Part shown: piece after piece, positions 4,401 through 63,235 of the stretch | Layout of the letters: the number at the start of each line of letters is the position of its first letter | Position numbering within the stretch: position 1 is the stretch's first letter | Assembly: GCA_951406725.2 (NCBI GenBank) | Contig: OX597830.1 | Location: 61,876,001 to 61,940,000 of the forward strand | Length of the DNA stretch: 64,000 nt | From: Octopus vulgaris | Taxonomy: Eukaryota | Direction of reading: 5' to 3' | Notes under the pieces: generated by a model | Told to the model about the DNA's origin: nothing | The model's input: the letters and a program-made list of their open reading frames with translations, nothing else | Databases searched by the model: none | Program-made: the position numbers and the translations under genes

Positions 4401-4508
4401 TTTATTATTATTATTGAGTGAGAGAGCAGTGCATGCCAACAAAGTGACTCTGGGGTAAAATATACGAAGCCCAGTATAACCATCATGACTACCTGTCTGA
4501 TAAGGGTA

Positions 4509-5069
4509 TGTAGTGATCCTATACAACGGCGCGCGCTCGCGCACCGTCCATTTGTATTTCGCGCGTGCGGGGTTGGTGCTTTCACCACCGGAAGAAGAAC
4601 CCTTTTGCCTACGTAGCAGTTAGCCGAGGCAAGGGGATCGTAAGACGTTGACCACCAGCGTCCAGCAAGCAGCGACTTGAGACATGGCTATCGAAGGCAA
4701 CGGTCACGTATATTTTCTCTCTCTCCGAATTTGATTCTAGCAGCAGTCGGCCGAAAGCTTTTAACCAAATTGTTGCCGACCACATCATCTTCCCTGTTCC
4801 GGACGCCATCTTTAACCCGTTCTGTTTTTAGCGGCTGAACATTGTAAATATTACAATCGATTAACTTTCAGCCTTGCGCGCCCAGAACCAAGGATATCAG
4901 ATATACCACTGATCTCTCACCATAAAACAATAAAGTATATATATTATTTACGTCTGCGTCTTGTTGTTTCTGACTGGTAGAGAATCTGGATTATCAAAGC
5001 AACGGAAAGTGATTGCTTCTCGCACCCCCAAAAGGTCCAGAGAAGATATTCACACGCGAAGTCGTTACA
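4509..5069 (+). repeat. LTR, left arm (561 bp)
   Basis: Starts TGTAGTG, ends CGTTACA, contains AATAAA (4929-4934), followed 1 nt later by the PBS. Confidence 0.85.
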
Positions 5070-5070
5070 G

Positions 5071-5089
5071 TGGTGACCCCGACGTGATT
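5071..5089 (+). other. Primer-binding site complementary to the tRNA-Trp 3' end
   Basis: TGGTGACCCCGACGTGATT is the reverse complement of AATCACGTCGGGGTCA-CCA (metazoan tRNA-Trp 3' end); mirror copy at 6635-6653. Confidence 0.9.
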
Positions 5090-6654
5090 CTGGTCTAAAA
5101 CCAGAGATCACTTAACAACAAAGAAATCCAGTTTTCTGCGAAGTCGGAACACGATTAACTCTACGCATTCATCTTTCGACGATTTGTTTCCGTCCTCTCG
5201 GACCGTTATAGAAGGAGCCCTTTTCTTATTCTTCAACAATGATGACGGACGCCATCATATCATCGATGCCTTTTCTCTACCGTCATCATCGTCGTCTTAG
5301 AACTTCACGTCGTCGTTATCTTCGTCGCCATCAACACTAAGAACAATGTTGTCTCAAGTCCACTACAGTCGCCTTCCACCACCACCGTCGCCTTTCAACA
5401 CCGTCGACCAAGATGTACATAGCAACTCGCGGAACTTTAGCTTTCACGCTGTTCGTGCATAGCGCGCCAAGAATTAACAGCCCAGCACTATCTACGAGAT
5501 TCTTTAACGATTTAACATGTCACAGCATCGAAGCTACAACCGCTACACATTGTGTTCAATCGGCATCTGCATTTGTGATTTCAACATTCTGTTACAGAAC
5601 GAACTGCTATTGTGTATCAGGCTATTACAGACTGGTTAACTAACTCCATTGTCTGGAATAGCCTTGAGAGACATTTCTTTTTATGCGCTGTATTTATTTT
5701 TTGCTCGCATTTCACCTTGTATGTATTTTTGTCGCACACACGTACACACACATAAATGCTATCTCTCACATACATACGTCACACATGCTTTTCTCGCTTG
5801 TTTTTTTTTCTAAATTTGCCTTTTGTGGACACACCTCATTTCTATAGACCCTAGGTCGGTCACCGACCTAGGGTCTATAGAAATGAGGTGTGTCCACAAA
5901 AGGCAAATTTAGAAAAAAAAACAAGCGAGAAAAGCATGTGTGACGTATGTATGTGAGAGATAGCATTTATGTGTGTGTACGTGTGTGCGACAAAAATACA
6001 TACAAGGTGAAATGCGAGCAAAAAAATAAATACAGCGCATAAAAAGAAATGTCTCTCAAGGCTATTCCAGACAATGGAGTTAGTTAACCAGTCTGTAATA
6101 GCCTGATACACAATAGCAGTTCGTTCTGTAACAGAATGTTGAAATCACAAATGCAGATGCCGATTGAACACAATGTGTAGCGGTTGTAGCTTCGATGCTG
6201 TGACATGTTAAATCGTTAAAGAATCTCGTAGATAGTGCTGGGCTGTTAATTCTTGGCGCGCTATGCACGAACAGCGTGAAAGCTAAAGTTCCGCGAGTTG
6301 CTATGTACATCTTGGTCGACGGTGTTGAAAGGCGACGGTGGTGGTGGAAGGCGACTGTAGTGGACTTGAGACAACATTGTTCTTAGTGTTGATGGCGACG
6401 AAGATAACGACGACGTGAAGTTCTAAGACGACGATGATGACGGTAGAGAAAAAGGCATCGATGATATGATGGCGTCCGTCATCATTGTTGAAGAATAAGA
6501 AAAGGGCTCCTTCTATAACGGTCCGAGAGGACGGAAACAAATCGTCGAAAGATGAATGCGTAGAGTTAATCGTGTTCCGACTTCGCAGAAAACTGGATTT
6601 CTTTGTTGTTAAGTGATCTCTGGTTTTAGACCAGAATCACGTCGGGGTCACCAC

Positions 6655-7215
6655 TGTAACGACTTCGCGTGTGAATATCTTCTCTGGACCTTTTGGGGGT
6701 GCGAGAAGCAATCACTTTCCGTTGCTTTGATAATCTAGATTCTCTACCAGTCAGAAACAACAAGACGCAGACGTAAATAATATATATACTTTATTGTTTT
6801 ATGGTGAGAGATCAGTGGTATATCTGATATCCTTGGTTCTGGGCGCGCAAGGCTGAAAGTTAATCGATTGTAATATTTACAATGTTCAGCCGCTAAAAAC
6901 AGAACGGGTTAAAGATGGCGTCCGGAACAGGGAAGATGATGTGGTCGGCAACAATTTGGTTAAAAGCTTTCGGCCGACTGCTGCTAGAATCAAATTCGGA
7001 GAGAGAGAAAATATACGTGACCGTTGCCTTCGATAGCCATGTCTCAAGTCGCTGCTTGCTGGACGCTGGTGGTCAACGTCTTACGATCCCCTTGCCTCGG
7101 CTAACTGCTACGTAGGCAAAAGGGTTCTTCTTCCGGTGGTGAAAGCACCAACCCCGCACGCGCGAAATACAAATGGACGGTGCGCGAGCGCGCGCTGTTG
7201 TATAGGATCACTACA
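6655..7215 (-). repeat. LTR, right arm (inverted)
   Basis: Reverse complement of 4509-5069, with at least two substitutions seen on spot-checking. Confidence 0.85.
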
Positions 7216-7763
7216 GGTACACCAGGCACATGTATCACAACCATATGTGCATGACATGGTGATCTCATATCAAGATAAACAGCACATGACTTTGCAGGTG
7301 GGGCCCAGTTAGAATTTTCTTCTAGTCGAGTAACCCAACCCGCTCAAAAGGTCCCTGAATAAGGGCTGTTTAAGGATGTTGAACAAACCACCCATGTTTC
7401 CAGAGGTGAATTATTCAAACCCCAAAGAATCCCTCTCAACACATGGCTATGATGCTCCACCACTACTTCTGCTCGTGATCAGAGATACACATATCGTCAG
7501 CCACTAAGGGACATGCTCAACTGGTTAAGGTCAAACAACTGACAAGCAAATCTGTGGTATTGAGCAGAATATTTGCTGTGGCCCATCTTTTATACCAAGA
7601 CAAAACAATGTACATAACACTTCCAATCAGTTAAGATCAGCAGCCATGAGAGCCACTGCCTGGTACTGCATCAGGGCATAGCAAATCTGTGGTATTGAAC
7701 AGAATATTTGCTGTAGCCCATCTTTTATACAGCAAAATCACCACGGTCACCTTTTTTTTTTTT

Positions 7764-8061
7764 TATTGGCTGATATTATTTATCCACAGGGTTTGTTTGG
7801 GTGGTGGTACTCCTATTTGAATGGGTTTGAGGGAGTTTCCAGCTTCTTTTGTGACTGCAGTGGCTGCTGCATATATTATGTCATTTAGCCTGGTGATATT
7901 GACATTTGCTTCTGTGGCTATTAGTTCCGTGACGGCCAGGTTCATGCTATTTATTATTGAAGTTGTTTTATTGTCTAATTTGATTTTTGGGAGATATAAT
8001 CGGTGGTCTATTCTGTGATATGTAGCTTTCAGTTCTTTGATTATTCACATTTTTATAGTAT
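7764..8061 (-). pseudogene. Inverted copy of the R4/Dong ORF fragment
   Basis: ORF 7763-7945 (NVNITRLNDIIYAAATAVTKEAG..) matches 1907-2186. Confidence 0.7.
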
Positions 8062-8295: not shown

Positions 8296-10214
8296 CTAGC
8301 AGAGATACCCGGCGTTGCCCGTGTTACATGCACTTGAAGAAATTTACTTTTCTGTTATATTTTCTGTAATGAACTGGAATACCTATGTTTCGAATTTCAC
8401 CAAAATTGCAGATGAGGCTTATTTCCCTCTTTACACACCCTAAAAATAAATTGTAATCAAGCCACATGCATCCCATACTACTGATTTTTATGCGCATATT
8501 CCAAAATCACCACGGTCACCTTTGTTTTTGTAAAGCGTAATGATGTTAGCATCCCGCATATCCTGAGGGACTGTACCCTCTTCCCAGCACTGACCCAGAA
8601 GCTCATGAAGGTGCCGAAGCAGGATGGTGTTTTTGCCGGTTTTGATGATATCTTTACACACCCAAACAAAATTGTAATCGTGCCACATGTATCCCACACT
8701 ACTGATTTTTATGCGCATATTCCAATATTCCAGTCTTATAGAACCTGTTAAAAAGATTTTGCTCCTGAAAAATGGAGGTCATGGAGCTCTAAAATGTGAG
8801 AGTTAACGCCCCTATTGGGGGTGGGCATCTTAATGTCAACCAGAGGAGTTGAATTGTTGAGAATCTTTTTAACTTGGGTCTTATATCTTTTGTTTGAATT
8901 TCTTTGAAATAGGAAATATATGATCACTGGGTTTGTAAAAGAGAGCAAAGCTACAGGAAACCAAAAGATGAATGATCACAATAAGCAGTCAGCTACCCTA
9001 CCCTAGTCGTTACCACTCCCAATGTAGTATTCCTCACCATGGTAAGATGCATTACGAATCTATAGCAATTGGAAGGGCGTGGCCCAACTGAAATAAACAT
9101 TAACAATTGTGTGACATGAGGGCTAAGGACAAATGAAAGTTTGAGTTTGCATATGACCACTATACTGATACGTAACCGGACAGAATAAATATACAATCTA
9201 TAAATGTCTTTGAACAACCAGTCACTCATTTGGGAAGGCCTTGAAATCAATGTTACCATGTGGGGACTATGTGTGATCCAGTGATAATAAAAGACTGAAA
9301 GGAAATCTGCAATCAAATAACTTTACTCAACACTTTACAACTGAATCAGTGGAGGAAAAGATGCCTCTCATTTACTTGACAATTTATGCAGCACATTGCA
9401 GAAATCACAATCTAAGTGCATGTCATAGCAAACTCTTACACTGTTGTACTATTGAATTACAAATAATCCTCATCTTCTATGCTCGGATGACCCCACAGCT
9501 TCCAAGAGTACAACAATTCGTCTTTGCTTAGAGAAAATGACAAAATTGTGGGTGTTAAGTCTCCATGAAAGGGTCTTACTAACTTGTAAGAAGATGAAAT
9601 TTTAAAAATATTACTTCATTTGTATCTAATATTTATGGTTAAAATTTCATCAACAGCAAAAATATATGAATTGTCATGGGGGTTGTAGCCCTTATGCATA
9701 GAATATAATTTCCAAATTTCGTAAAGATCAATTCAGTACTTTTGACTTAGTTTTGGATCATAAAAGAAATTACTAAAATTTGGGAGTTAAGGCTCCCATT
9801 ACGATATCTTAGAATCCTCATGTGAAGTGGAAACTTTGAGAATACTTTTTGATGTGTGTCAATTACCCATGGTTGAAATTTCGTCAACGTCGAAAATTTA
9901 TGAATCTTCATGGGGGTGCTGCCCCCTTTAAGCCATCTGAAATTCAAACCAAACATATTTCATTATACTCGCCCTTATGCATTGAATCTAAGTTTCAAAT
10001 ATCATAAGGTTCCATTCAGTAATTTTGGTCCGTGAAATTGTATGAAACACACAGCATTACCCTTCTCCCTAGGCTTCGATTTTGTGTTCCAAATTTCATT
10101 ATGATCGGTGGAGCAGTTTTCGAATGTATAAGTAATACACGAACACATAAAGACATTGTCTTTGATATAATAAATATGAATGTACACATATACATACATA
10201 TATATATATATATA

Positions 10215-11866: not shown

Positions 11867-12296
11867 AGATTTACAAATTTCGGATAATCCTATATCTTAA
11901 AATTCCGTGCTCTGTAATGAAGATAACTTTGCACTCCTTAGTAGAGGTAAACCGACAATTTATAAGCGAAAAATACATATATATCCAGATAAATTTTTGC
12001 GTACAGATACCAGTATATACATGCATTTCCTGAGTATATATTACATCTAATCACCCATGTTAATTATATCAGTGGCTAGCGTATAAAAAAAGACCATGGT
12101 CGAGATGGGCGATTAGATGTACTATATGCACGGGAAATCCATGTATATATTGGTCTCTGTACGCAAAAATTTATCGGTATGTATATCTATTTTTCGCTTA
12201 TATATTGTCAGTTTATTTCTATTGAGGAGTGCAAAGTAATCTCCATCGCAGAGCACGAAATCTTAAGATATAGGATTATCCGAAATTTGTAAATCT
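11867..12296. mobile_element. Fold-back/MITE-like element with ~190-bp imperfect inverted arms
   Basis: AGATTTACAAATTTCGGATAATCCTATATCTTAA.. pairs with ..TTAAGATATAGGATTATCCGAAATTTGTAAATCT; short spacer near 12060-12100. Confidence 0.75.
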
Positions 12297-13669: not shown

Positions 13670-16600
13670 GATAGAGAACCGCTTCATAAACTCTCAAATA
13701 CAAACCAAAATAAAAAACAAATCCAAATTGGCAACTATGTAACAAATGAAATAATACGAGAATTAAAACCTGATTTTACTGAGTTAAATGAAATTATTTA
13801 CGCTTCTGCTAGGGCAATTGAAACCAGCTGTATGCCCCCGAAAAAACAAAGAAAACAAAACCTGGGAAGAAATCAAACCTGGAGAAGTAAAATTGAAAAA
13901 GAGATTGAATTTATGAGAGGGGAAATATCAATATTAAATGAACTAATATGTGGAAATGATGTAAGATCCAGAACAGGAAGAAAAATGAAGAGAAAATTTT
14001 GATCCTCACCGAGAGAAGAACTGATATCAATAAAAGAAACGCTGAAACAAAAAGTCCAAGCAAAAGCCCAAAGAATACGAAGATTTGAGAAGAGAAACAA
14101 GTTTTACAAGCAAAATAAGCTGTTCACATCCAATGCCAAAAAATTCTACAGAGAAATAGGGAAGGAGAAAGTAACCGTTAAAGACCCCCCTCCCATGGAA
14201 GAAGTTCAAAACTTTTGGAAAAGGATTTGGAGTGACAAGAAGACGTACAACATAAATGCAGACTGGATTATACAAACTGAAGGATCCTACCAAAATTTAC
14301 AACAAGCATGGGAAGACATCACAATAGCAGACCTAAGAAAGGGACTCACGAAGGCCCATAATTGGAAATCCCCCGGTAAAGATAGGGTGCCGAATTTCTG
14401 GCTCGCATCGCTCCCGTGCGCACACGGTAAGCTAGTTTAGCTGCTCAATGGAATTATGAGAGACCCAAAGAAAACACCTGAATGGTTAGCAAGTGGCATT
14501 ACTTACCTACTCCCAAAGAATAACGAAACCAACCTTCCAAAAAACTATCGGCCTATAACCTGTCTATCCACCACGTATAAAATCCTAACATCTATCCTGG
14601 CGGAGAAAACATATGCATTCATGGAGAAGAACGATATTTTCCCCATTGAACAAAAAGGGTGCCGCCGAGGCTCTTACGGATGCAAAGATCAACTGCTAAT
14701 CAATCGTATGATCCTTGAGAACTGTCACAACAAGCGCAGAAATCTCAGCACCGCATGGATTGACTATAAAAAGGCCTTCGACAGTATACCGCATCCATGG
14801 ATCTTGAGATCGCTGGACATCTTCAAAATTTCCCCTGTGATTTCAAACTTCCTGAAGCACAATATGTCGTTGTGGAATACGAATCTCCAATTATACCACT
14901 CTAATGGAGTACTTGCCTCAGAAAATATAAACATGAACTGTGGAATTTTTCAAGGTGACTCACTTTCACCTTTAATATTCTGCATAGCCCTAATACCCCT
15001 TACAAGTGAATTAAACAGAACAAGGTATGGGTATAAAATTGCCAATAAAAAAATAAGCCATCTATTTTATATGGATGACTTAAAACTTTATGGTAAAGAC
15101 AATAATGAACTTGAAGGCCTATTGCGCACCGTGAAATCATTCAGCGATGACATCGGGATGGGGTTTGGACTTGAGAAGTGTGCCAAGGCCACTTTCCAGA
15201 AAGGGAAAGTGAAGACCACAAATTCAGTCGTGTTAGATGTTGACACAGTCATAAGAGAGCTTGAGCAAGAACAAACATACAAATATTTAGGGATAAATGA
15301 AGGCTCTGGTATTCAGCATGCAAGCATGAAAGAGAAAATCAGGAAGGAATGTTATAGGAGAGTTCGTGCAGTCCTGAAATCTGAACTAAATGCACGTAAC
15401 AAGGTGTTAGCTATAAATTCCCTAGCAGTTCCAGTTGTTACTTATAGCTACAATGTGTTGAACTGGAATATGAGTGAAGTAAAGAATATAGATAGAAAAA
15501 TACGCAAGCTGCTGAGTTGTAATAGGATGCACCACCCAAAGGCAGACGTAGATCGCCTTTACCTTCCCAGAGCCCAAGGAGGTCGAGGCCTGATCCAATT
15601 TGAACTAGCTTACAAAACAACCACAATTGGACTGGCCAAATATCTCGAAATATCGAATGACTGGATGCTAAAGCTCGTGGAAAATCACGAGAGACGAAAG
15701 AAGCTTCATTCTATCATCAAGGAAAGCAAAAAATTTGCTATTGATCTCGTGCAGAATACCCAAACTGAACAACCCGAGGGAAGTACGGCAACTATTGTTG
15801 CAAAGAAGGTGAAAATGATGGCAATGAAAAAAGCGCACGAGCAATTGGCTGATAGGTGGGAGGAGAAACCTCTGCACGGCAAATATGTGACCCGCAGCAA
15901 ACAAGCTGATGTTGACCAGAAGCAAACCCATCAGTGGCTGCGGAGCTCAGGGCTAAAAGCAGAGAGCGAAGGTTTCATCCTGGCTGCTCAAGACCAAAGC
16001 CTATCAACCCGGAACTACCAGGCCAATGTGATGAAAAATGGAGCAGACCCAAAATGCCGATTCTGCAACGACATGATTGAAACAGTGGACCACCTAATCT
16101 CTGGATGTAAAGTCTTAGCACCAGTGGAGTATAAATTAAGACATGACAGAGTTGGCCAATATCTCCACTGGCTAATAAGTCGGCATTACAATATCAAAAC
16201 TGCCGACCAGTGGTATAATCACCACCCTGAGGCTGTAACTGAAGGAGAAAATGTAACCATTCTGTGGGACTTTCCAGTACATACAGACCGAACCATCAAG
16301 GCCAATAAACCAGACATTGTTGTGAAAGACCAAAACAATAAAGTTTGCTTATTGATCGACATGAGCATCCCCTGTGATCATAATATCTCAGCGAAAGAGT
16401 TTGACAAGCTCAGAAAATATAAAGACCTACTCATTGAAATTGAGAAAATGTGGCATCTCAAGGCGGTTACAATACCAGTGATCGTAGGAGCACTAGGAAT
16501 GATCAAGAAGGGAACCGAAAATTATATGAGAATGATCCCTGGCTTACCATCCCTGCAAGAAGTGCAAAAGATTGTCTTAACTGGTACATCACACGTATTG

Positions 16601-16803
16601 AGAAGAGCATTGTCGATGTGAGAACTGTTGCTGCTCATGTATTTTAATTTAACTTTAAAAAAAAAAAAATAAAAAAAAAAAAATGAACGAACTACTGAGT
16701 TTGGTTTAATGGCCTACCAATATACACTATGAGTTTCTTTGCCCTAGGAGTCGGGAAGACACTCGGCAAGAAATGGAAGAAAATTTGAAAGAAGAAAAAA
16801 AAA

Positions 16804-17882: not shown

Positions 17883-18681
17883 CTAGAAACGATTTATATC
17901 AAAAAAGCTCTCCGAAATATTCCGAAGATGATTGATATCTCTGGCTGCTTTATACCCAAGCAGTTTATACACATATAAACATGCTTCATCCACATCTTTG
18001 ACGAAATCATACGCAGACTTTAAACGCCATTCCCGAGTATGAAATAAGGAGTTTCGTGCCGAAACTGAAAATGGATTTTTGTTCAAATTTTTGCCTAGCA
18101 TATTTCGGCGAATCCATTCTTGAACATTTTCTGTAAATGGAATGTGAAGGAAATGGTACATATCCTTCGTAACAGCAATGGGATTCTCGCTAAGATTTTC
18201 GTAAAAAAGTGTCATTATTCTCTCTTTAAACTGTGGAATTTTCTTGAGTTCAATAGTTTTTATAGCATTATAATATATTTGAGAACAGAGACGTTTTGTA
18301 TGTTTTTCACCTTCTAAAATTTTTAAACCCACTTTTGAACGGGATCTCAAAATAGCACGTGGATCTCTAATAAGGTGTACAACATATAGGTTCGAATCCG
18401 ACTGTAATAACTCGGGTACTAAATTCATATCAAGGCGGATTACTTTAGCAATTCTGACATTAGCTGAATTACACACATTTTGTAATTGTGGCAGGCATTT
18501 GTTAACCATCGGCACACTATTATTTTTTTTAAGACACTGATTAAATTTTTTACAAATTTTGCATCCTGAAACTGCTCTGTCAAGTAATGTTTCCACAAAA
18601 GTGTTACGAAATTTACAATTAAGATGTGCTTTCAAAATTTGTATTTTTCCCTTTTCTACCGATTTGTTAGTTGCGAAATAT
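17883..18681 (-). CDS. Carbohydrate sulfotransferase (CHST1/3/5-like), last coding exon
   Basis: AKVIRL, VVHLIRDPRAILRSR (3'-PB motif), YENLSENP, C..YKLLGY; acceptor TTTTTCAG before 18681, phase 2. Confidence 0.85.
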
Positions 18682-19076
18682 CTGAAAAATACAAATGAAA
18701 AATACAAACTTTTCAAAACAAGTAAAAGAGACTTAAATCATATAATTATTAAAAAAACAAAAAAAAAAAGCAGTAAATCTCTTGAATTTAATTAGAAGTC
18801 AAGCCTTTGAAACTGTTCAGCAAAATAACATTCAAATTCAAGCCAGAGAGATCGTAGCTTTTCACAGCAACACAGAATTTTACCACGTCAAAGCACGCAT
18901 CTTGAAATGAAAGTACCCTATATCTGGGTTATTTGATGAAATATATGGGAAGCTACCTATGAGTGCACGAACATTATAATGAACTGATGTACAATGTTAT
19001 CCATTATGAAATCAAAAGCACAGTTTTAACATAGCGCATATTAAATACTTTCTTGAAAGAAATATCACGGACCTAG

Positions 19077-23029: not shown

Positions 23030-26000
23030 TAGCAGAGGTACCCGGCGTTGCCCGGTTACATTCAATTGAAGAATTTGACTTTTCTGTTATATATATATGG
23101 ATACACACACACACACGCACACTCACACATATATATATATATATGTATATTAATATAAATACATGAAAGTACATGAAGTTTGTTAAAAAAATGGGGGGAT
23201 CATGTACATACCTCCTGGCTGTTGAGATTATAACACCTCATTGTAAACAATGTTCCTTGTTTTTCCTTGTGGAGCGTATACAAAAAGGTTTCTTTTGATT
23301 CCTACTCTTGAGCAGCCAACATACAGTTGCCCATGCGAGAAGCAGGGCTCTTCCAAGAGAAGACCAGCTACAGAGAGGGTTTGACCCTGAGATTTGTTAA
23401 AGGACATGGCAAAGCTGACACAAAGGGGGCATTGCAGTTTTCTGAATGTAAATGGAATTTCTGCTCCTGATGGAGTAAGTGGAATTCTTGGAATAAAGAC
23501 GTCATCACCTTTTCCACATCCAGAAAGAATGATCGCCTCGATAACGTGTGACATCATTTTCTTCATCACCAGTCGTGTTCCATTGCAAAGTCTTGGTGGT
23601 TCCAGATTGCGGAGTACCATTACAGGAGTTCCAACTTTAAGTGCTAATATGTGTGGAGGTAGTCCAGGAGGCTCCAGCGAATTGAGAAATTCAGGAGGAT
23701 AGTTCACAACTTCATTTATATCTGGAATTGTATCAACAGACTTGTAAGTGTGTATAGTGCCGGGAAGAGAAGGCATTAGCTGTTGATTAATTTTGTTAAC
23801 AGCGACGTTTTTTTGAGCTAATATTGCTCTTTCACACAGCCAATTGTAATTTTGGTAGTTTTGTGTGAAGTTGAGAAAGACTTTGTTTTTGAGGTCATCT
23901 ACAGAATTAACAACAGAGGAAAATGACCACACTTCCATTTGTCCTGCAGCATCGAGAGATATCTTTCCTTCACCAAGTGTCAAAATGTCCTGTGCAAACT
24001 TTGTGGACATTTTGTTGCCGTGTAGCTGAGCTCTCATGTTAGTGGTGAGACTGAGGACTGTAACATGATGCCACAGGGTAGAGGACTTTCGGCGTGCTTG
24101 GACTTCATCTGCTCTAGTGCCTTTCGGAATGACAGGAAGAGTTTGCCTGAAATCACTTGACAACAGAAGCGTTACACCTCCCATTGGAGCCTGACAGTCT
24201 CGGATGCCTTTCAGGGCTCTATCTAATGCTTCCAAAGCTCCCTTTTGAGCCATAGGGCACTCATCCCAGACAATTAGATGACACATTTTAAGTACTTGTC
24301 CCTGATCTGAGCTTTTGTTGATGTTGCATGAAGGCATTTCGGATGCTCCTAAATTGAGAGGGAGTTTAAAAGTTGAGTGTGCTGTCCTGCCACCAGGTAA
24401 CAAAGTAGCTGCAATGCCAGAGGAGGCTACAGCTACTACAATGTCCTGATGCTGCCTAACTTCTGCAAGGAGAAGCTTTGTAATAAATGTTTTTCCTGTC
24501 CCTCCGGGAGCATCGAGGAAGAAGATTCGTCCTTCGCATTGGCGTACACTGTTAAGAATAGTTCTGTAGGCCTGCAGCTGCTCCGGAAGTAATTTAGGCT
24601 CATTTTCAACAATGTACTTTGAAAGCGCTTGAATGTCGTAGGTTGTTTCACGAATGACAGCAGTGGGAAGGCTATTTGACCCTGACCTGAATGCTTGTGG
24701 CAGGCCATACGTCGACAATTCATTTCCACCCAGTTTAGCAATTCTGTCTTCAATGTCAATGAGTGTTTTGTTATAGATTTCATTGCTGATACCCTCCATG
24801 TCAGGATAGAGCAGTTGAGCTTGGCGCTGAAAGTCTTCAGCCAGGTTGTCTCTATATTTGAGCCATAGAGTGGCCGGATCACACAGTTCGCAAGCCTGTA
24901 GTAATACTGCAAATAGTGCCCTGAGACTTTTAGGTGATTGTGATAAAGCGGCCTCTCTTAAAGTAGCATCCCATTGTGCACCATCTTCTAACAGACCTTG
25001 TCGATAGCAGGCTTCTCTGTATGTTGTGCAGACATGTCCATGAACGGTTTTTAGGGCTTGGAAAGACGTTGGCCCTCTGACCTCATGCAGTAGTAGACGA
25101 AGGTAGAAGCACTCTTGTTGAGTGGGATGCACTGTGTATACTCGCCCAAGGCAAGTGTGAAACTTAATGCCAGGGTATCCATGAACATTTTGACCTGCTT
25201 TCCGTGGGGCCTATTTTTTCCATTCCAAGTGTAGTACGATGGAATCTGTGGATACAGCAAGGTTTAAGTGAATGGATCCACTTAACAAAGCTTGAAGAAT
25301 GCAGTGAGTGTGCTACCCCTTGGTTCCTCTGCCAACAGAGAAGCATTAGCATCGGTGAAGTACACTCTTTGACTATTTTCCAGGTGCACTGCAAGCTGTT
25401 GAATGGCGGGGTGTCGTTGGTGAATTGGAAAACCAAAGATGCGCCAGAAAGCCTCGTTGCTACTTATGTACCGTCCCACCTGATAATGCGTCACCTCATC
25501 CTGGCAGTATTCATGTTGAAGTCCAAACATTGCAGCGTCAGAACCCTTGTTTACATATTTGCAAACGTACTTGATGGATTTAACGGAGTTGCAAAACTCA
25601 ACGTTGATGTGGGCATTGAAAGTCTTTGACAGGAGTGGGCAGTATGGAACAATCCATCTATTATCAATATCGTGCTGTCCGATAGTTGCTGTGAAACTTC
25701 CGTCTTCTGGTTTTCTGCGTCTGTATGATGGATACCCATCAGCACCTGTCTGAGTTTCTTGTAGGAACCTCCTTGGAAATCTTTTTGAACATATGCTGTC
25801 CTTCAAGCATGGTGAGTTTATGTTGAATGCACACCCACATGGACCATGTACCATGTTTGCTTTAACTATTTCGTATAGTTCTTTGTCTAAAGCTGGATCA
25901 GGAAGCTCTGCAGAGATTATGTTGTCGATGTAATTGGAATTGACCTTCGCTGAGAGCCAAAGCAGGATATGAGCATGTGGAAGGCCCCTTTTTTTGCCAC

Positions 26001-30485: not shown

Positions 30486-33400
30486 TGTTATGTGTAGTTC
30501 CGTTCTTGATGGGTGATAGACAACTCAATTGAAGGCATTGTTATTGTTTTACGTGTTTATTTACTTTACATGTTACACGAACTGTCAACATTCAGCGTAG
30601 TAATACATATATACTTGAGACACAGTTCGTACTGTTTACGAACAAAATAGTGCCAAAAGTGGGGATGTATTCTACATGCGTATACCTACGTATACACATA
30701 GATATGAATGTGTAACATCCCTTCTTGAAAAAAAATAAAGGGGTCTTTTGGCAGTGAAGACAAATATAAGTATTCTCCCTTACTCTATGGATTGTCAGCC
30801 TGAGGTGGCAATCCTACAGCAGAAATCGTGAGATTATTCTGCCTCTGCTTTGTAATCTAGCAGAATTAGTTACTTATCTTTTCATTTTCTTTTTTTTTTT
30901 TTTCTTTAACGGTATCGAACCGGTGGCAGAATGTTCGATCTCCATCTGGTGGATCTTGTGCTTCGCACTGGTGTCTGAGGTGTGTTGTTGGGCTGCTGAT
31001 AGGTGGTTGGTGCCCGTCGGGGTGATGATTCTGTGGGTGTTGTCACTGATGCAGCAGGTGTTGTACACGTTGTCCTCGACAGCTTTGGTGTTGGGCGGAT
31101 GTGGGCCCTGTTGCGTCTCAGCTGCCCACCAGATTCCGTTTCTATTATATATGATCTTGGAGTTTCAGCTCTACTGACAACCTATGCTGGGATCCATGTT
31201 TTAGTTATGGGATCTTGAGTATGCACATGTCCTCCAAGTATCTCAGGTAAATATTGTGCATGTTTGTTGTAATATTTCTGTGATTGTTCTTGAGTGGCTG
31301 CTAGCTTTGCCCTTGTCTCTTCCTGGTCAATAGGAGGTTGGATCTTAGTTGGCAGGGTAGTTTTGTACTTCCTGCCATTCAGCAATTCTGCTGGGGATTT
31401 CATATCAGCTCTCAGTGGTGTCGCTCGTAGGGACAGAAGTGCCAGGTGTGGGTCTTCCTTAGTCTCTCGGCATTTGACTAGTGTTCTCTTCACTGTCTGC
31501 ACCTGTCTTTCTATAAACCCATGACCTTTGGGGTAGTGTGGAGATGAGGTTGTAATATTGAACCCATACTCATCGGCTAGCTTTTTGAATTATTGCGATG
31601 TGAACTGGGTTCCATTATCACATATGATCTGCTCTGGTATTCCTTGCTCTGCTAGGAGTCCTCGAGCCACTGTAGTGATTGTTTTGGCTCTCAGATCTTT
31701 CACTTTTCTCAAAAATGGAAATTTGGAGTAGTAGCAGACCATTATTAAATACCATTCTTGGCCCTCTGTGAACAGATCTACTCCAATAGTTTGCCATGGC
31801 CTTCTTGGGATGTCACTAGATATCATTTCCTCCTTTTGTTGTGAGTTTCTGTACTTTTGACAGATGTGGCATGTAGAAACTGTCTTTTCTATGTCTTTGT
31901 ACATGCCTACCCAATATACTGCTGACTTGGCTCGGAGCTTGCATTTCTCCATTCCTAGATGCCCATGGTGGATCTTGTCAAGAATCTCTTTTTGCATTGA
32001 CTTGGGTATAATTATTCGGGATCCAGCCATCAGAATTCCATTCTCCACTGATATATCATCATGGATGGCCCAATATTCACGAATGAGGGGCTGCACCTGA
32101 TGTCTCTTTTCTGGCCACCTCTGAATCACCATCTGAGTAAGGAGCTGAAGTTCTTCATCTTTGCTGGTCTCCTCTTTGATTTCTGCTAGCTTTGTGGTTG
32201 TCACATTTACAATGTGGTGGACATTTATGCTTAGTCCTTCCATCTCCTGTTTATCATGTGAGGATAGTCTGGAAAGAACATCCGCCAATATCAGGTCTTT
32301 TCCTGGCTTGTACCTGATATCGTAGTCGTATGTTTGAAGCCTTAACAGTAATCTTTGCAGTATTCTGGCTGGTGCTTTTGTGAGATTTTTTATATGTATT
32401 TGTTGTAGCGGGCGATGGTCTGTTTCAATATTGAAATGTCTGCCATACAAGTATGTATGGAACTTTTCACATCCATATACTACTGCCAGGAGTTCCCTTT
32501 CAATATTTGCGTGCCTTGTCTCTGTGGGTGAGAGCGCTTTCGAGGCACATGCAATGGGTTTACCTTCCTGTATCAGTGCTGCGCCAACTCCTCTCATAGA
32601 AGCATCAACTTGGAGTGTTACTGGTTTGCGTCTGTCATAGAACTGCAGGGTTGTCTCCTTACTGGTGAACTTTTTGATTGCTTTGAAATCCTGTGTGTGT
32701 GAAGCACACCAATCAAACTCTACGTCATCTTTGTTTAGTCCTCGGAGATTTGCAGTGTGATCGGCCAGCTTGGGTATGAAGGCTCACATGTAGTGGATGA
32801 GTCCCAGGAAACTCCTGAGTTCCTTCTTGTCTTTGGATTCTTTAATGTCTCTCATGGCTTCCACTTTAGCGGGGTCTGGTTTAACTCATTCTGCAGAGTA
32901 TATAATTCCAAAGAATTTGCACTCCTTTGCTTTTATCACACACTTGTCTGCATTGAGTTTGATGCCTGCTTGTCGGGTTTCCTCCATAGCTTCATGTAAA
33001 TTGAAGACATATGTGGTCTCATCCTTGCCATGCACTTGGATGTCATCTGCTATCCCAATTGCTCCCTTGCAGCCTTGGTAGGTTTCATCTATTTGGCGCT
33101 GGAAAACATCTTGGCTCACCTTCAATCCAAATGGGAGTCGGTTGAATCGATATCTGCCAAATGGTGTGTTGAAGGTAGTGAGCATGGATGACTCTTCGTC
33201 TATCTTTACATTTCAGTACCCATTACTGGCATCCAGTTTGCTGAGTAATTTGGATCCAGCCAATGATGGTGCGATTTCTTCAAGGGTTGGAATTGGATGG
33301 TACTCCCTTTTTAATGCCTTGTTCAAGTTCCTTGGGTCGAGGCATATCCGTAGGGTACCATTGGGTTTTTCCTTGATTACAATTGAATTCACCCAGTCTG

Positions 33401-44868: not shown

Positions 44869-45757
44869 TAATGTGGTGCATAAATTGTCAAGTAAATGAG
44901 AGGCATTTTTACCGCCACTGATTCAGTTGCAAAGTGTCGAGTAAAGTTATTTATTGCAGACCTCCTTTCAGTCTTATTATCACTCGGTCACACATAGTCC
45001 CCAGATGGTAAAATTGATTTCAAGGCCTTCCCAGATGAGTGACTGCTTATTCAAAGACATTTATAGATTGTAAATTTATTCTGTCCAGTTACGTATTAGT
45101 ATAGTAGTCATTTGCAAACTCCAGAGGTTACACTTTCATTACTCCTTAGCCCTCACGTCACACAGTTGTTAATGTTTATTTCAGTTGGGTTATGCCCTTC
45201 CAATTGCTATTGATTCGTAATGCATCTTACGGCTGTGCCTGTCACCTTGATGGTGAGGAATCCTACATTGGGAGTGGTAACAACTAGGGCAGGGTAGCTG
45301 ACTGCTTATTGTGATCATTCGTCTTTTGGTTTCCTGTAGCTTTGCTCTCTTTTACAAACCCAGTGAAGATATATTTCCTATTTCAAAGAAATTCAAACAA
45401 TAGATATAAGACCCAAGTTAAAAAGATTCTCAACAATTCAACTTCTCTGCTTGACATTAAGATGCCCACATAACTCTCACATTTTAGAGCTCCATGACCT
45501 TCATTTTTCATGAGCAAAATCCTTTTAACAGGTTCAATAAGACTGGAATTTTGGAATATGCGCATAAAAATCAGTAGTGTGGGATACATGTGGCACGATT
45601 ACAATTTATTTTTAGGGTGTGTAAAAAGGGAAATAACCCTCATCTGCAATTTTGATGAAATTCGAAACATAGGTATTCCAGTTCATTACAGAAAATATAA
45701 CAGAAAAGTCTAATTCTTCAATTGAATGTAACACTGGCAACGCCAGGTATCTCTATA
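44869..45757 (+). mobile_element. Helitron 3' portion
   Basis: Inverted homolog of 8296-9390 lacking the RTE insert; ends CTGGCAACGCCAGG-TATCTCTATATAG (degenerate terminus). Confidence 0.75.
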
Positions 45758-49600: not shown

Positions 49601-50262
49601 CAAATTATATGTAACCAGCAACCAAACCATCCCTCTTTAAACAGCAAAATAAAAATAAACAAAAACTAATTATATCCCTAATTAAACACAAATATCCCTA
49701 CTCATCACCAACATCATTAACACAAACTCACTCCTATTTTCACTCCACCAACTTTGCCAAAACTCTCATTTCACACATATCTCAAAACTAAATCATGTAA
49801 ATTATTCAATCCATAAAGGTACCCCTTAGAAAATATATACCTACATATTCTCTGCTAAAGTGACTACAAACTCTGAAAACTACCATGTAGGACTATTTGT
49901 ACACAAATTCAAATTCTAAGCCAACACCTGGACCCGTTTAGACATATTAGCAGTAAATCAAATACTAATCTAACAAATTTATAGGGATCCTCAAAAGCCG
50001 TGCTACAGGCGCAGGAGTGGCTGTGTGGTAAGTAGCTTGCTAACCAACCACATGGTTCCGGGTTCAGTCCCACTGCGTGGCAAGGCGCAGGAGTGGCTGT
50101 ATGGTAAGTAGCTTGCTAACCAGCCACATGGTTCCGGGTTCAGTCCCACTGCGTGGCATCTTGGGCAAGTGTCTTCTGCTATAGCCGCGGGCCGACCAAT
50201 GCCTTGTGAGTGGATTTGGTAGACGGAAACTGAAAGAAGCTTGTCGTATATATGTATATATT

Positions 50263-50298
<36 letters not shown>

Positions 50299-50737
50299 TA
50301 TGTCTGTGTTTGTCCCCCTAGTATTGCTTGACAACCGATGCTGGTGTGTTTACGTCCCCGTAACTTAGCGGTACGGCAAAAGAGACCGATAGAATAAGTA
50401 CTGGGCTTACAAAGAATAAGTCCCGGGGTCGATTTGCTCGACTAAAGGCGGTGCTCCAGCATGGCCGCAGTCAAATGACTGGAACAAGTAAAAGAAAGAA
50501 AAGAAAGAAAGAAAGGTGCGAGAATGAGTTGAAACAATTGCGTTGGTTTTCTTTTTAATAAAGAATCTCCTGAATTTCATTTTCTGTCTCTGATCCATTT
50601 ATATAAAATCTACAGACGCTATGGAATGCCTAAAATATACTGAAGTAGGATGTGCATTGAGTAGCCAGTAACTGCAAATGAGCTTTTAACTGCATTTCAT
50701 AATAATATTTTTATCCGAACATAACTGAACCTCACAC

Positions 50738-50782
<45 letters not shown>

Positions 50783-51533
50783 TGTGTGTGTGTAGGTTTG
50801 CGAGTTTGTTCACCAACATTGCTTGACAACAGATGCTGGTGTGTTTTGCGTGTAACTTAGTGGTTCAGCAAAAAAAAGACCGATAGAAAAAGTACTGGGC
50901 TTACAAAGAATAAGTCCCGGGGTTAATTTGCACGACCAAATGCGGTACTTCAGCATGGCCGCAGTCAAATGATTGAAACAAGTAAAAGAATAAAAGAATG
51001 TGTGTGTGTGTGTGTGTGTGTGTATTATCTTTCTTCGTTTTTGTATCTGGTTTGCAAGGTTATTTCATTAAATTATCTTTATCTCTCATCCCTTACTTGT
51101 TTCACTCATTTGATTGAGTCCATGCCGAGGCACTGTCTTGAACGTTTTTTAGTCAAACAAATTGACCCCAGGGCTTATATATATTAAGCCTAGTACTTAT
51201 TCTATTGGTACCTTTTGCCAAACCAAACCGCTAAGCAACGAGAAGTAAATACACGAATAACAGTTGTCCAGTGGTGGTGGGAGAAGAAATGTACACACAC
51301 ACACACACACACACACACACTTTCTCTGTCGCTTTCTCTATCCCTCTCCCTTCTCCTTCTCTCTAGCGTTGCCCTGACAGACTTTGAAACTTTTCATCAG
51401 TAACCTTGCCCTTTTTCTTCAGCGACATTGATTCCTTTTTCTAATATAGCAATGTATTATGCGCACACATGCTTAAGCTGTTTCTTGCAGACTAGCATGG
51501 TCATCTCTTTTTTCTTTAATTCACTACCTAGAG

Positions 51534-51736
51534 CAGTGGTTTTCAACCAGGGTTCCGCCAGTACAATCCAGGGGTTCCGCAAGAAGTTACAAAACTGCTA
51601 AAATCGGCAGTAATTTTTAATTCTCCTGTGCAGATATGTGTGCATAAGACTATTAAATTATTGCACAGGGGTTCCCCCCGAGCCAGTGGAATGTTTCCTT
51701 GGGGTTCCGCTCCAGCAAAAAGTTTGAAAAGCACTG
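51534..51736. mobile_element. hAT MITE (present in each array unit)
   Basis: CAGTGGTTTTCAA / TTGAAAAGCACTG termini; 8-bp TSD ACCTAGAG. Confidence 0.85.
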
Positions 51737-52641
51737 ACCTAGAGAACTATATCTTCCGGCTTGCTCATGTTATTCACGTAATCCCTCCCTCTTGCCCCCT
51801 AACCACCACCAGATCAACGAAACAGTTTATGTGAGCTGCTGCTTACTGCAAGGATGTCTTTTTAGGCAACGGCCTCAAAATAGAATTAAATAAAAGACCC
51901 TAGTAATAAGCAGCATTAACTCCCATAACCCCTCACATTATTAGACAGGTTGCTCTCAAGTACTATTAGGTAAATGTTTTTCTGATGGAGGGAGTGTGCA
52001 TTGTGCTACACAGCCAATGACCACTATAACCAAAACCATGTGCAGGTGAATAAAAAAAATCGAGTAAAACAAAAACAAAAGTTTTATTGCCACTTATATG
52101 GTGTGCTTCAATCGGAACTCCGCCAAAACATGGAAATGAAGAGAGAATTAGTTAAAATCACAACGATTACATTTTCTTCAATACATAAAAAATAATTCAT
52201 AATATTATTAAAAAAATGGGCACAAAGTAAGACAATCTGATTAAGAAAAGTAATTTTACCTGCTTATTTAGTTCCCAAAGCTTGGTCAGCGTTTAAAACT
52301 GCAGATTTATGAAGAAAAAGAACTATTGAAATTAATTCTATCCTGTTCTTAACAAAAATGATTTTTTCCTCACTATGTATCTCTCTCCCTCTCCCTCCCC
52401 CTCACCCTCCCTCTCTCTCTCTCTCTCCCTCTCCCTCTCTCTTTCCCTCTCAATCTCTACCTCTCATCCCTCTCTCTTTCTCTTTTTCACCGTCTCTCTT
52501 CTCTCTTACACACACACACACACAAGCAATCAATAAACGCCTATATCGAAATTGCAATACACAATAACAAAAGAAAACTATGTGTGCACTCATATGCGAT
52601 TTAAGGAGAGAGAAAAAAGAGTGCCTGCGCGCTATGGCGTG

Positions 52642-52712
<71 letters not shown>

Positions 52713-52814
52713 GTATGTAGACGGCTGAACATGTATGCGCCTTAATGTAAGCATGCACATCTTTTATTATTTATCTTTTACTTTTTATCTTTTACTTATT
52801 TCATTCACTGAAAC

Positions 52815-53220
52815 AAAAATGGCAAATATATTTGAATGACGACTTTATTATTTGGAATGTGACCATTGATAAACTTTTGGAATTTAAATCAATACTAAAT
52901 TATATAAATCCAAACACTCAGTTTACAATGGAATATAGGAAAGAACAACTCCCTTTCTTAGATATTCTGGTAAAAAAAGAGTCAAGAGTCGAAATTGTAA
53001 CCGACATCTATCATAAACCAACGGACCCGAAGCAATATCTTCTGTTTAGTTCAAACCACCCGCAACACATCAAAAGAAATATTCCATTTAATTTTTAAAA
53101 AATGATTTGCACAATAGTTTCTGATGGAAATACTCGGGACCTCCGTCTTCAAGACCGCAGAACAACACAAACCGAGAGACATTTATAGATGAGGAAATTA
53201 AACGTACCAAGAAAATAGAT
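52815..53220 (+). pseudogene. Penelope-like RT fragment (present in each array unit)
   Basis: DDFIIW..NPNTQFTME..LPFLDILV..TDIYHKPTD..YLLFSSNHP. Confidence 0.85.
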
Positions 53221-53480
53221 AGGCGCAGGAGTGGCTGTGTGGTAAGTAGCTTGCTAACCAGCCACATGGTTCCGGGTTCAGTCCCACTGCGTGGCAAGGC
53301 GCAGGAGTGGCTGTGTGGTAAGTAGCTTGCTAACCAGCCACATGGTTCCGGGTTCAGTCCCACTGCGTGGCATCTTGGGCAAGTGTCTTCTGCTATAGCC
53401 CCGGGCCGACCAATGCCTTGTGAGTGGATTTGGTAGACGGAAACTGAAAGAAGCTTGTCGTATATATGTATGTATATATT

Positions 53481-53511
<31 letters not shown>

Positions 53512-53950
53512 TTGTATGTCTGTGTTTGTCCCCCTAGTATTGCTTGACAACCGATGCTGGTGTGTTTACGTCCCTGTAACTTAGCGGTACGGCAAAAGAG
53601 ACCGATAGAATAAGTACTGGGCTTACAAAGAATAAGTCCCGGGGTCGATTTGCTCGACTAAAGGCGGTGCTCCAGCATGGCCGCAGTCAAATGACTGGAA
53701 CAAGTAAAAGAAAGAAAAGAAAGAAAGAAAGGTGCGAGAATGAGTTGAAACAATTGCGTTGGTTTTCTTTTTAATAAAGAATCTCCTGAATTTCATTTTC
53801 TGTCTCTGATCCATTTATATAAAATCTACAGACGCTATGGAATGCCTAAAATATACTGAAGTAGGATGTGCATTGAGTAGCCAGTAACTGCAGATGAGCT
53901 TTTAACTGCATTTCATAATATTTTTATCCGAACATAACTGAACCTCACAC

Positions 53951-54050
<100 letters not shown>

Positions 54051-54253
54051 GTTTGCGAGTTTGTTCACCAACATTGCTTGACAACAGATGCTGGTGTGTT
54101 TTGCGTGTAACTTAGTGGTTCAGCAAAAAAAAAGACCGATAGAAAAAGTACTGGGCTTACAAAGAATAAGTCCCGGGGTTAATTTGCACGACCAAATGCG
54201 GTGCTCCAGCATGGCCGCAGTCAAATGATTGAAACAAGTAAAAGAATAAAAGA

Positions 54254-54309
<56 letters not shown>

Positions 54310-55920
54310 TATCTTTCTTCGTTTTTGTATCTGGTTTGCAAGGTTCTTTCATTAAATTATCTTTATCTCTCATCCCTTACTTGTTTCACTCATTTGATTG
54401 AGTCCATGCCGAGGCACTGTCTTGAACGTTTTTTAGTCAAACAAATTGACCCCAGGGCTTATATTTTAAGCCTAGTACTTATTCTATTGGTACCTTTTGC
54501 CAAACCAAACCGCTAAGCAACGAGAAGTAAATACACGAATAACAGTTGTCCAGTGGTGGTGGGAGAAGAAATGTACACACACACACACACACACACACAC
54601 ACTTTCTCTGTCGCTTTCTCTATCCCTCTCCCTTCTCCTTCTCTCTAGCGTTGCCCTGACAGACTTTGAAACTTTTCATCAGTAACCTTGCCCTTTTTCT
54701 TCAGCGACATTGATTCCTTTTTCTAATATAGCAATGTATTATGCGCACACATGCTTAAGCTGTTTCTTGCAGACTAGCATGGTCATCTCTTTTTTCTTTA
54801 ATTCACTACCTAGAGCAGTGGTTTTCAACCAGGGTTCCGCCAGTACAATCCAGGGGTTCCGCAAGAAGTTACAAAACTGCTAAAATCGGCAGTAATTTTT
54901 AATTCTCCTGTGCAGATATGTGTGCATAAGACTATTAAATTATTGCACAGGGGTTCCCCCCGAGCCAGTGGAATGTTTCCTTGGGGTTCCGCTCCAGCAA
55001 AAAGTTTGAAAAGCACTGACCTAGAGAACTATATCTTCCGGCTTGCTCATGTTGTTCACGTAATCCCTCCCTCTTGCCCCCTAACCACCACCAGATCAAC
55101 GAAACAGTTTATGTGAGCTGCTGCTTACTGCAAGGATGTCTTTTTAGGCAACGGCCTCAAAATAGAATTAAATAAAAGACCCTAGTAATAAGCAGCATTA
55201 ACTCCCATAACCCCTCACATTATTAGACAGGTTGCTCTCAAGTACTATTAGGTAAATGTTTTTCTGATGGAGGGAGTGTGCATTGTGCTACACAGCCAAT
55301 GACCACTATAACCAAAACCATGTGCAGGTGAATAAAAAAATCGAGTAAAACAAAAACAAAAGTTTTATTGCCACTTATATGGTGTGCTTCAATCGGAACT
55401 CCGCCAAAACATGGAAATGAAGAGAGAATTAGTTAAAATCACAACGATTACATTTTCTTCAATACATAAAAAATAATTCATAATATTATTAAAAAAATGG
55501 GCACAAAGTAAGACAATCTGATTAAGAAAAGTAATTTTACCTGCTTATTTTGTTCCCAAAGCTTGGTCAGCGTTTAAAACTGCAGATTTATAAAGAAAAA
55601 GAACTATTGAAATTAATTCTATCCTGTTCTTAACAAAAATGATTTTTTCCTCACTATGTATCTCTCTCCCTCCCCCTCCCCCTCTCCCTCCCTCTCTCTC
55701 TCTCTCCCTCTCCCTCTCTCTTTCCCTCTCAATCTCTACCTCTCATCCCTCTCTCTTTCTCTTTTTCACCGTCTCTCTTCTCTCTTACACACACACACAC
55801 ACAAGCAATCAATAAACGCCTATATCGAAATTGCAATACACAATAACAAAAGAAAACTATGTGTGCACTCATATGCGATTTAAGGAGAGAGAAAAAAGAG
55901 TGCCTGCGCGCTATGGCGTG

Positions 55921-55987
<67 letters not shown>

Positions 55988-56755
55988 GTATGTAGACGGC
56001 TGAACATGTATGCGCCTTAATGTAAGCATGCACATCTTTTATTATTTATCTTTTACTTTTTATCTTTTACTTATTTCATTCACTGAAACAAAAATGGCAA
56101 ATATATTTGAATGACGACTTTATTATTTGGAATGTGACCATTGATAAACTTTTGGAATTTAAATCAATACTAAATTATATAAATCCAAACACTCAGTTTA
56201 CAATGGAATATAGGAAAGAACAACTCCCTTTCTTAGATATTCTGGTAAAAAAAGAGTCAAGAGTCGAAATTGTAACCGACATCTATCATAAACCAACGGA
56301 CCCGAAGCAATATCTTCTGTTTAGTTCAAACCACCCGCAACACATCAAAAGAAATATTCCATTTAATTTTTAAAAAATGATTTGCACAATAGTTTCTGAT
56401 GGAAATACTCGGGACCTCCGTCTTCAAGACCGCAGAACAACACAAACCGAGAGACATTTATAGATGAGGAAATTAAACGTACCAAGAAAATAGATAGGCG
56501 CAGGAGTGGCTGTGTGGTAAGTAGCTTGCTAACCAGCCACATGGTTCCGGGTTCAGTCCCACTGCGTGGCAAGGCGCAGGAGTGGCTGTGTGGTAAGTAG
56601 CTTGCTAACCAGCCACATGGTTCCGGGTTCAGTCCCACTGCGTGGCATCTTGGGCAAGTGTCTTCTGCTATAGCCCCGGGCCGACCAATGCCTTGTGAGT
56701 GGATTTGGTAGACGGAAACTGAAAGAAGCTTGTCGTATATATGTATGTATATATT

Positions 56756-56786
<31 letters not shown>

Positions 56787-57226
56787 TTTGTATGTCTGTG
56801 TTTGTCCCCCTAGTATTGCTTGACAACCGATGCTGGTGTGTTTACGTCCCTGTAACTTAGCGGTACGGCAAAAGAGACCGATAGAATAAGTACTGGGCTT
56901 ACAAAGAATAAGTCCCGGGGTCGATTTGCTCGACTAAAGGCGGTGCTCCAGCATGGCCGCAGTCAAATGACTGGAACAAGTAAAAGAAAGAAAAGAAAGA
57001 AAGAAAGGTGCGAGAATGAGTTGAAACAATTGCGTTGGTTTTCTTTTTAATAAAGAATCTCCTGAATTTCATTTTCTGTCTCTGATCCATTTATATAAAA
57101 TCTACAGACGCTATGGAATGCCTAAAATATACTGAAGTAGGATGTGCATTGAGTAGCCAGTAACTGCAGATGAGCTTTTAACTGCATTTCATAATATTTT
57201 TATCCGAACATAACTGAACCTCACAC

Positions 57227-57296
<70 letters not shown>

Positions 57297-57499
57297 GTTT
57301 GCGAGTTTGTTCACCAACATTGCTTGACAACAGATGCTGGTGTGTTTTACGTGTAACTTAGTGGTTCAGCAAAAAAAAAGACCGATAGAAAAAGTACTGG
57401 GCTTACAAAGAATAAGTCCCGGGGTTAATTTGCACGACCAAATGCGGTGCTCCAGCATGGCCGCAGTCAAATGATTGAAACAAGTAAAAGAATAAAAGA

Positions 57500-57551
<52 letters not shown>

Positions 57552-59163: not shown

Positions 59164-59248
<85 letters not shown>

Positions 59249-60015: not shown

Positions 60016-60051
<36 letters not shown>

Positions 60052-60487
60052 TATGTCTGTGTTTGTCCCCCTAGTATTGCTTGACAACCGATGCTGGTGT
60101 GTTTACGTCCCTGTAACTTAGCGGTACGGCAAAAGAGACCGATAGAATAAGTACTGGGCTTACAAAGAATAAGTCCCGGGGTCGATTTGCTCGACTAAAG
60201 GCGGTGCTCCAGCATGGCCGCAGTCAAATGACTGGAACAAGTAAAAGAAAGAAAAGAAAGAAAGAAAGGTGCGAGAATGAGTTGAAACAATTGCGTTGGT
60301 TTTCTTTTTAATAAAGAATCTCCTGAATTTCATTTTCTGTCTCTGATCCATTTATATAAAATCTACAGACGCTATGGAATGCCTAAAATATACTGAAGTA
60401 GGATGTGCATTGAGTAGCCAGTAACTGCAGATGAGCTTTTAACTGCATTTCATAATATTTTTATCCGAACATAACTGAACCTCACAC

Positions 60488-60565
<78 letters not shown>

Positions 60566-60768: not shown

Positions 60769-60824
<56 letters not shown>

Positions 60825-62437: not shown

Positions 62438-62532
<95 letters not shown>

Positions 62533-63204: not shown

Positions 63205-63235
<31 letters not shown>

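Follow-up and report, generated by a model that had tools for sequence, protein, structure and literature searches.

Origin of a palindromic LTR insert

The window analysed here is a stretch of 64,000 nucleotides from Octopus vulgaris (contig OX597830.1, positions 61,876,001 to 61,940,000). Close to one end it contains a palindromic LTR insert that departs from the canonical LTR layout, since its LTRs are inverted and not direct. The locus raises the question of how such a structure came to be integrated, and whether it represents a self-propagating inverted-LTR family, a single rearrangement or something else.

Structure of the insert

The initial annotation described a 2,707-bp palindrome at 4509–7215, with arms of 1352 and 1354 bp and a one-base centre, and this description is confirmed. 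The left arm spans 4509–5860 and the right arm 5862–7215, with a C at 5861 between them. The two substitutions and two homopolymer indels reported between the arms were all recovered. Both substitutions are G/A transitions (4528/7196 and 4988/6736), one of them at a CpG, and the right arm has one extra homopolymer base at 6453 and another at 6026. In relatives, the right-arm state is rare or absent at three of these four positions (motif counts in the fetched loci of 22 vs 1, 31 vs 0 and 18 vs 0); the fourth sits in a variable T run, which permits no polarisation.

The anatomy proposed for each arm, an LTR followed by a tRNA-Trp primer-binding site (PBS), is also borne out. Each arm starts with TG. 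The left-arm LTR (4509–5069, plus strand, 561 bp) ends with the terminal CA at 5069 (mirrored at 6655) and matches four solo LTRs at 96–98% identity; the left insertion junction lies at its U3 end. After a single spacer base comes the PBS (5071–5089, plus strand), which equals the reverse complement of the human tRNA-Trp 3' end at 19/19 bases (tRNA as given in the available text of 10.1101/400127). The non-coding 5' internal region of a non-autonomous family follows at 5090–5863 (plus strand), up to the switch point; it has no long ORF and is 95–96% identical to the best relatives, and parent copies diverge from it after 5863. The same features recur on the minus strand as an inverted internal-region copy (5864–6634), a second PBS (6635–6653) and the right-arm LTR (6655–7215), whose U3 end forms the right insertion junction, the normal place of a U5 end. 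The insert has two PBSs and lacks the purine tract of the parent family. No ORF of at least 120 aa lies inside the palindromic element, and ARAGORN and Rfam gave no match in the window.

Target site

The insert lies within an abundant host repeat whose size and copy number are SINE-like; the left part of the repeat is at 4402–4508 and the right part at 7216–7500 (both plus strand). Exact copies of GGTA flank the insert (4505–4508 and 7216–7219, plus strand), and had been read as a target-site duplication. Paralogues of the host repeat provide the empty site. From the best 40 scored among 942 candidates, 19 were fetched, and all 19 consist of left flank, a single GGTA and right flank; in 17 the BLAST match starts at the first base of the right flank. 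Because the paralogues are contiguous across GGTA, the window element interrupts continuous sequence with a genuine and family-typical duplication. Amongst 39 family loci the duplication is 4 bp in 32, ambiguous in one that lies in a TA run, and not clear in six. Both insertion junctions are exact U3 termini flanked by this 4-bp duplication.

These flanks bear on the possibility of an assembly or read artefact, in which a fold-back read or a wrong repeat path created the palindrome. A fold-back read would enter the reverse-complemented left flank, not the right flank and a duplication. In addition, the arms differ by two transitions, one of which is at a CpG, and the pattern is found at three loci (see below), one with clearly diverged arms. 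Four of 24 public sequencing runs were compared with 5826–7900; the listed pieces are shorter than 100 bases and form the smaller part of the set, and the raw-read run gave three reads. In these listed short pieces the junctions are neither confirmed nor refuted. Neither the centre nor the right junction is crossed by any listed read or contig, and the highest share of 5826–7900 words in any run is 0.60, as an artefact would allow. One contig (X15) shows ordinary continuation after 5863, and in others (X6) the host repeat runs uninterrupted up to 7216. Paralogues would be expected to give both patterns, and neither bears on the window allele. Taken with the structure of the flanks, an artefact is highly improbable.

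Parent family and autonomous partner

The genome searched comprises 2.8 Gb in 227 contigs. A search with one arm was scored for the best 40 of 1,020 candidates, and 28 other loci were fetched. All 28 run on past the centre into ordinary sequence; the second LTR is direct in 27 (in two only partly) and inverted in none. Intact relatives are ~2.5–2.75 kb long, are bounded by TG..CA and contain a PBS and a short purine-rich tract; the family has direct LTRs of ~500–600 bp around a non-coding interior of ~1.5 kb. In the window insert, the 5' half of such a normal non-autonomous element is fused to the reverse complement of itself. Copies of the family differ by 2–20%. The two window arms are 99.7% alike yet only 95–98% identical to their nearest relatives, which indicates one template lineage for both arms.

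The parent family, which we take to be a non-autonomous LTR element of the TRIM/LARD type, is like these elements in its direct LTRs, PBS, short purine-rich tract and non-coding interior sharing short blocks with an autonomous partner. The window copy differs in that it arose from such an element by rearrangement and is not itself the mobile unit.

Longer copies (5.4–5.8 kb) have the same termini, with parts of the LTR at ~80% identity and short internal blocks at 81–90%, and 19 direct LTR pairs lie 4–6 kb apart as candidates for the autonomous partner. In L064, the Pfam domains RVT_1, RNase H, Integrase_H2C2 and rve occur in Gypsy order with a protease-like motif upstream, and the partner accordingly has the Pol order PR-RT-RH-IN. 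The PBS of the autonomous copies has about its first 12 bases in common with the window PBS. A CHCC Gag motif (CX2HX9CX3C) is present in 8/8 autonomous loci and CCHC in none. This motif, replacing CCHC, is amongst the marks of CsRn1-like elements in the available text of PMC2582038. Together with the tRNA-Trp PBS and the 4-bp duplication, it upholds the CsRn1-type Gypsy partner suggested by the initial annotation, and by these sequence marks the relatives are assignable to a CsRn1-like Gypsy group, as one of its non-autonomous elements. The family resembles the CsRn1 clade of Ty3/Gypsy (CsRn1, PwRn1 and AgCR; PMC2582038, available text) in its tRNA-Trp PBS, 4-bp duplication and TG..CA LTRs, and its partner does so in CHCC Gag and PR-RT-RH-IN order as well. 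In contrast, the window copy lacks the 3' half, the PPT and a U5 terminus, is non-coding and has inverted LTRs.

Two other observations were made on this family. In L004–L030, the 5' and 3' LTRs of a single copy often disagree over the last 10–20 bases before the terminal CA, which hints at switching among RNAs packaged together. L066 (1312–5839) is a tandem non-autonomous copy with three LTRs and two interiors, the units being 99% alike.

Genome census

The exact centre junction has one match in the whole genome, and amongst 57 exact LTR–PBS junction matches the only opposite-facing pair is that of the window. A census by exact LTR-start pattern gave 384 distinct starts in 293 loci; for this pattern it is complete on contigs C1–C9, with 24 matches on later contigs outside the tally, and it misses mutated termini. 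Neighbouring starts within 12 kb form 83 direct, four convergent and four divergent pairs. The convergent pairs are those of the window, L037, L069 and L060. Two of the divergent pairs are formed by distinct neighbouring elements (L062/L068 and L070), and the other two belong to L037, which thus appears in both classes, and to L061. L037 (2403–5689) was rejected as an insert with two U3 ends, since its convergent pair consists of a normal copy whose 5' LTR hosts a reversed solo LTR of another subtype. Two-U3-end inserts are therefore found at 3/293 loci, each single-copy with its own centre and length, and they derive from both autonomous and non-autonomous LTR types. Elements with two U5 ends and an internal centre were absent from the 293 loci.

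The self-propagating inverted-LTR family put forward initially does not survive this census, and we regard it as the least probable reading of all. It would be served by the two intact attachment sites, the two PBSs and the matching autonomous partner in the genome. Against it, the window centre occurs once, three loci have three different centres, and 0/28 relatives are inverted. Moreover, the structure lacks a sense 3' R for first-strand transfer, a recombinase and a DIRS-type internal complementary region. Without a sense-strand 3' R or a PPT, the window insert is unable to finish a further round by the LTR route, and it does not represent a new class of autonomous or self-spreading element.

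The initial annotation had set this family against a one-off rearrangement, to be recognized by a single palindromic copy amongst relatives with direct LTRs. The exact structure is indeed single and the relatives are direct, but the type of product recurs, at L069 and L060. The presence of two further single-copy two-U3-end inserts suggests that the palindrome is the product of a recurrent copying accident, neither a new self-spreading family nor a one-off event.

Two further inserts with two U3 ends

L069 (G000:C3:78442141-78442516; locus 1642–2017) is the cleanest example of the class. It is a perfect 376-bp palindrome with arms 100% identical, flanked by the non-palindromic duplication CACT. 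Its arm corresponds to the first 188 bases of an autonomous LTR and is 188/188 identical to the 5' LTR of L065. The centre falls on a natural AAGGCCTT of the L065 LTR, and an inverted match as good as this is offered by 1.5% of positions in that LTR. There is no hairpin at this centre and the predicted self-dimer is strong (−9.4 kcal/mol), which favours pairing between two strands.

L060 (G000:C2:194135442-194136027; locus 1943–2528) is an asymmetric insert of 586 bp with the duplication GATC, in which ~220 bp of LTR is joined to ~370 bp of inverted LTR. The junction has a 3-bp exact match (4/5 against the parents). Four substitutions and two deletions separate the arms over ~220 bp, a divergence that would fit either age or the use of two templates. 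No usable paralogue of the L069 or L060 flanks, from which an empty site could be read, was present among the fetched loci.

The window centre is less informative. Parent sequence extends three bases beyond the geometric centre, to 5863, which places the junction on a 2-bp inverted microhomology around one base, GT-C-AC (5859–5863, no strand assigned), just 3' of a small natural parental stem-loop. Since a match of this grade is offered by chance at 11% of positions, the window centre does not discriminate between mechanisms; its self-dimer is weak (−2.8 kcal/mol). The stem-loop was considered as a special centre signal and rejected, as three parent copies fold no better than shuffles (z −1.13, −1.16 and +0.81). 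Autointegration was likewise ruled out, there being no U5 end at any of the three centres.

Mechanism of formation

The proposal that integrase joined two U3 ends is backed by the two further loci, which have U3 termini and 4-bp duplications, and it is likely that integrase now and then inserts such ends. Work on retroviruses shows that concerted insertion of two separate short ends by integrase is possible in vitro (PMC5329712, available text), and that the enzyme acts on the terminal 16–20 bases, imperfect inverted repeats with TG/CA (PMC12789967, available text).

The best explanation for the window insert, with a probability of about 0.58, is a dead-end by-product of reverse transcription, in which aberrant cDNA arises from plus strands priming on each other or on themselves. 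Each plus strand of LTR cDNA would begin at the U3 terminus. The 3' end of a stalled plus strand could anneal to a short inverted match, located either on another plus strand or on the same strand, which would be reopened later. Extension of the paired strand would generate a duplex bounded on both sides by U3 attachment sites, and the integrase of the partner would accept this duplex, leaving the 4-bp duplication customary for the family. The stall would have occurred after second-strand transfer in the window, ~790 bases past the PBS, and inside U3 in L069 and L060. This route is reconstructed, at the same probability, from three loci, with no cDNA intermediate seen. The microhomology of only 2 bp in the window, at the 11% chance level, counts against it. 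The hairpin-primed fold-back originally favoured stands as the self-pairing form of this route, but it is not the best fit for L069, where a centre hairpin is lacking and the self-dimer reaches −9.4 kcal/mol.

That strand-inverting switches occur in this family is shown by L078, whose ends are normal and flanked by a 4-bp duplication but whose inner segment is inverted. This element (524–2036; G000:C8, near 31561000-31562500) is 1,513 bp long with the duplication AACA, and its 5' part after base ~20–26 is inverted and partly deleted. At L061 (2391–4278; G000:C2, near 202692000-202693800), a solo LTR in a TA microsatellite is preceded by two inverted partial copies. The inverted LTR rearrangements there take in host flank, and the locus looks like a genomic rearrangement. 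The inversions at L061 and L078 imply that inversions in the family can arise by other routes.

Integration of two molecules is a possible though rather unlikely alternative. The U3 ends of two cDNAs would be paired by integrase, leaving a break flanked by one element on either side; host repair would then join the free ends through resection and annealing at a short inverted match, or would trim the middle of a larger unstable palindrome. This predicts the same ends and the same duplication, and concerted joining of separate ends is routine in vitro (PMC5329712, available text). The loop-less centre of L069 suits intermolecular pairing, and at L060 a base found in both L011 LTRs is present in one arm and missing from the other, as two templates could produce. 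On the other hand, the arms are 99.7% (window) and 100% (L069) alike in a family diverged by 2–20%, so that the two cDNAs would need to be siblings from one particle. End joining does not usually leave symmetric centres. A full-length tail-to-tail dimer was found in 0/293 loci.

A chromosomal template switch after an ordinary insertion is more doubtful still. A fork would reverse at the centre, copy the 5' half back and return through a 4-base inverted match at the terminus, keeping the old duplication. Such a switch has no need of an unusual integrase substrate, and inverted rearrangements are present at L061 and L078. The palindrome is also close in length to a normal element (2,707 vs ~2,500–2,750 bp). 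TGTA/TACA is common to the LTR termini, and at L060 the duplication GATC is itself palindromic, which extends the match at the return point to 8 bases; for that locus the chromosomal switch is almost as good an explanation as the cDNA route. In the window and L069, however, the return would have been on 4 bases, exactly at the terminus both times, after 1,350 and 188 bases of reverse copying, whereas the clearly genomic tracts of L061 enter host flank and ignore termini.

Comparison with known elements

DIRS elements encode a tyrosine recombinase, make no duplication, and have inverted terminal repeats and an internal complementary region. The window insert is similar in having inverted terminal repeats on a retroelement. 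It differs in its duplication, its integrase-type TG..CA ends and its PBS, and in the absence of an ORF, a recombinase and an internal complementary region; the integrase of the partner is of the DDE type.

Mu killer of maize is a DNA transposon derivative in which the 5' end is duplicated in inverted orientation, with silencing shown. The inverted 5'-end duplication in the window is comparable, and could similarly give a long hairpin RNA against its own family: transcription from either LTR is predicted to yield a hairpin RNA of ~1.3 kb. The origin from a DNA transposon and the silencing shown set Mu killer apart from the window insert, for which a hairpin role is predicted only.

Ginger1 transposons (PMC2836005, available text) have TGT-starting inverted termini, a 4-bp duplication and Gypsy-type integrase chemistry, as is the case here. 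Their 40–270-bp TIRs have been proposed to derive from two opposed LTRs (PMC2836005, available text), and the LTR-derived inverted termini of L060 (~220 bp) and L069 (188 bp) are of comparable form. In contrast to Ginger1, there is no ORF and thus no transposase between the termini, no CCGG/CCGT preference (the duplications are GGTA, CACT and GATC) and no sign of remobilization. The same centre at several target sites, as in a MITE-like or mobile inverted-LTR element, was absent.

In the titles and abstract openings searched, with few subscription journals covered, no description of two-U3-end insertions was found, and the available text of PMC3187697 and PMC8090852 contains nothing on them. 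The two-U3-end insert is apparently a little-described product of a known kind of element.

Possible significance

If this reading is correct, symmetric DNA with two U3 ends is inserted by LTR integrases in the germ line of a living animal, and frequently enough to account for 3/293 loci in one family. Tools based on direct LTR pairs would probably miss these inserts or class them as TIR elements. The inserts would offer concrete intermediates for the opposed-LTR origin proposed for Ginger1 TIRs (PMC2836005, available text), and would be candidate hairpin-RNA loci able to damp their own family. A broader proposal, speculative and rather improbable at present, is that Gypsy reverse transcription regularly (at ~1 locus in 100) makes two-U3-end duplexes that integrase inserts, turning LTR termini into TIRs in one step. 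Ginger1- or MITE-like elements bounded by TIRs could then arise directly from LTR retrotransposons, and the family would carry an intrinsic source of hairpin RNA able to silence it.

Other features of the window

The window is rich in microsatellites. At 50007–63400 there are about four tandem copies of a 3.2–3.3-kb unit, 97–98% alike and composed of repeat fragments and microsatellites, an array that reflects either young tandem amplification or assembly expansion. A 430-bp imperfect inverted repeat at 11867–12296 is MITE-like, with 192-bp arms at 88% identity. Open frames in the window include one with a non-LTR-type RT (14441–16621, plus strand), a presumably Helitron-like one with a PIF1 helicase (23228–25210, minus strand) and one with an unrelated LTR RNase H–integrase region (31590–32783, minus strand). 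A 284-aa open frame at 17883–18737 (minus strand) contains a sulfotransferase domain (PF00685, E 3e-09) and is possibly a host gene exon. Two opposite-facing copies of another repeat, 88–96% alike, lie 36 kb apart at 8301–9397 and 44870–45754.
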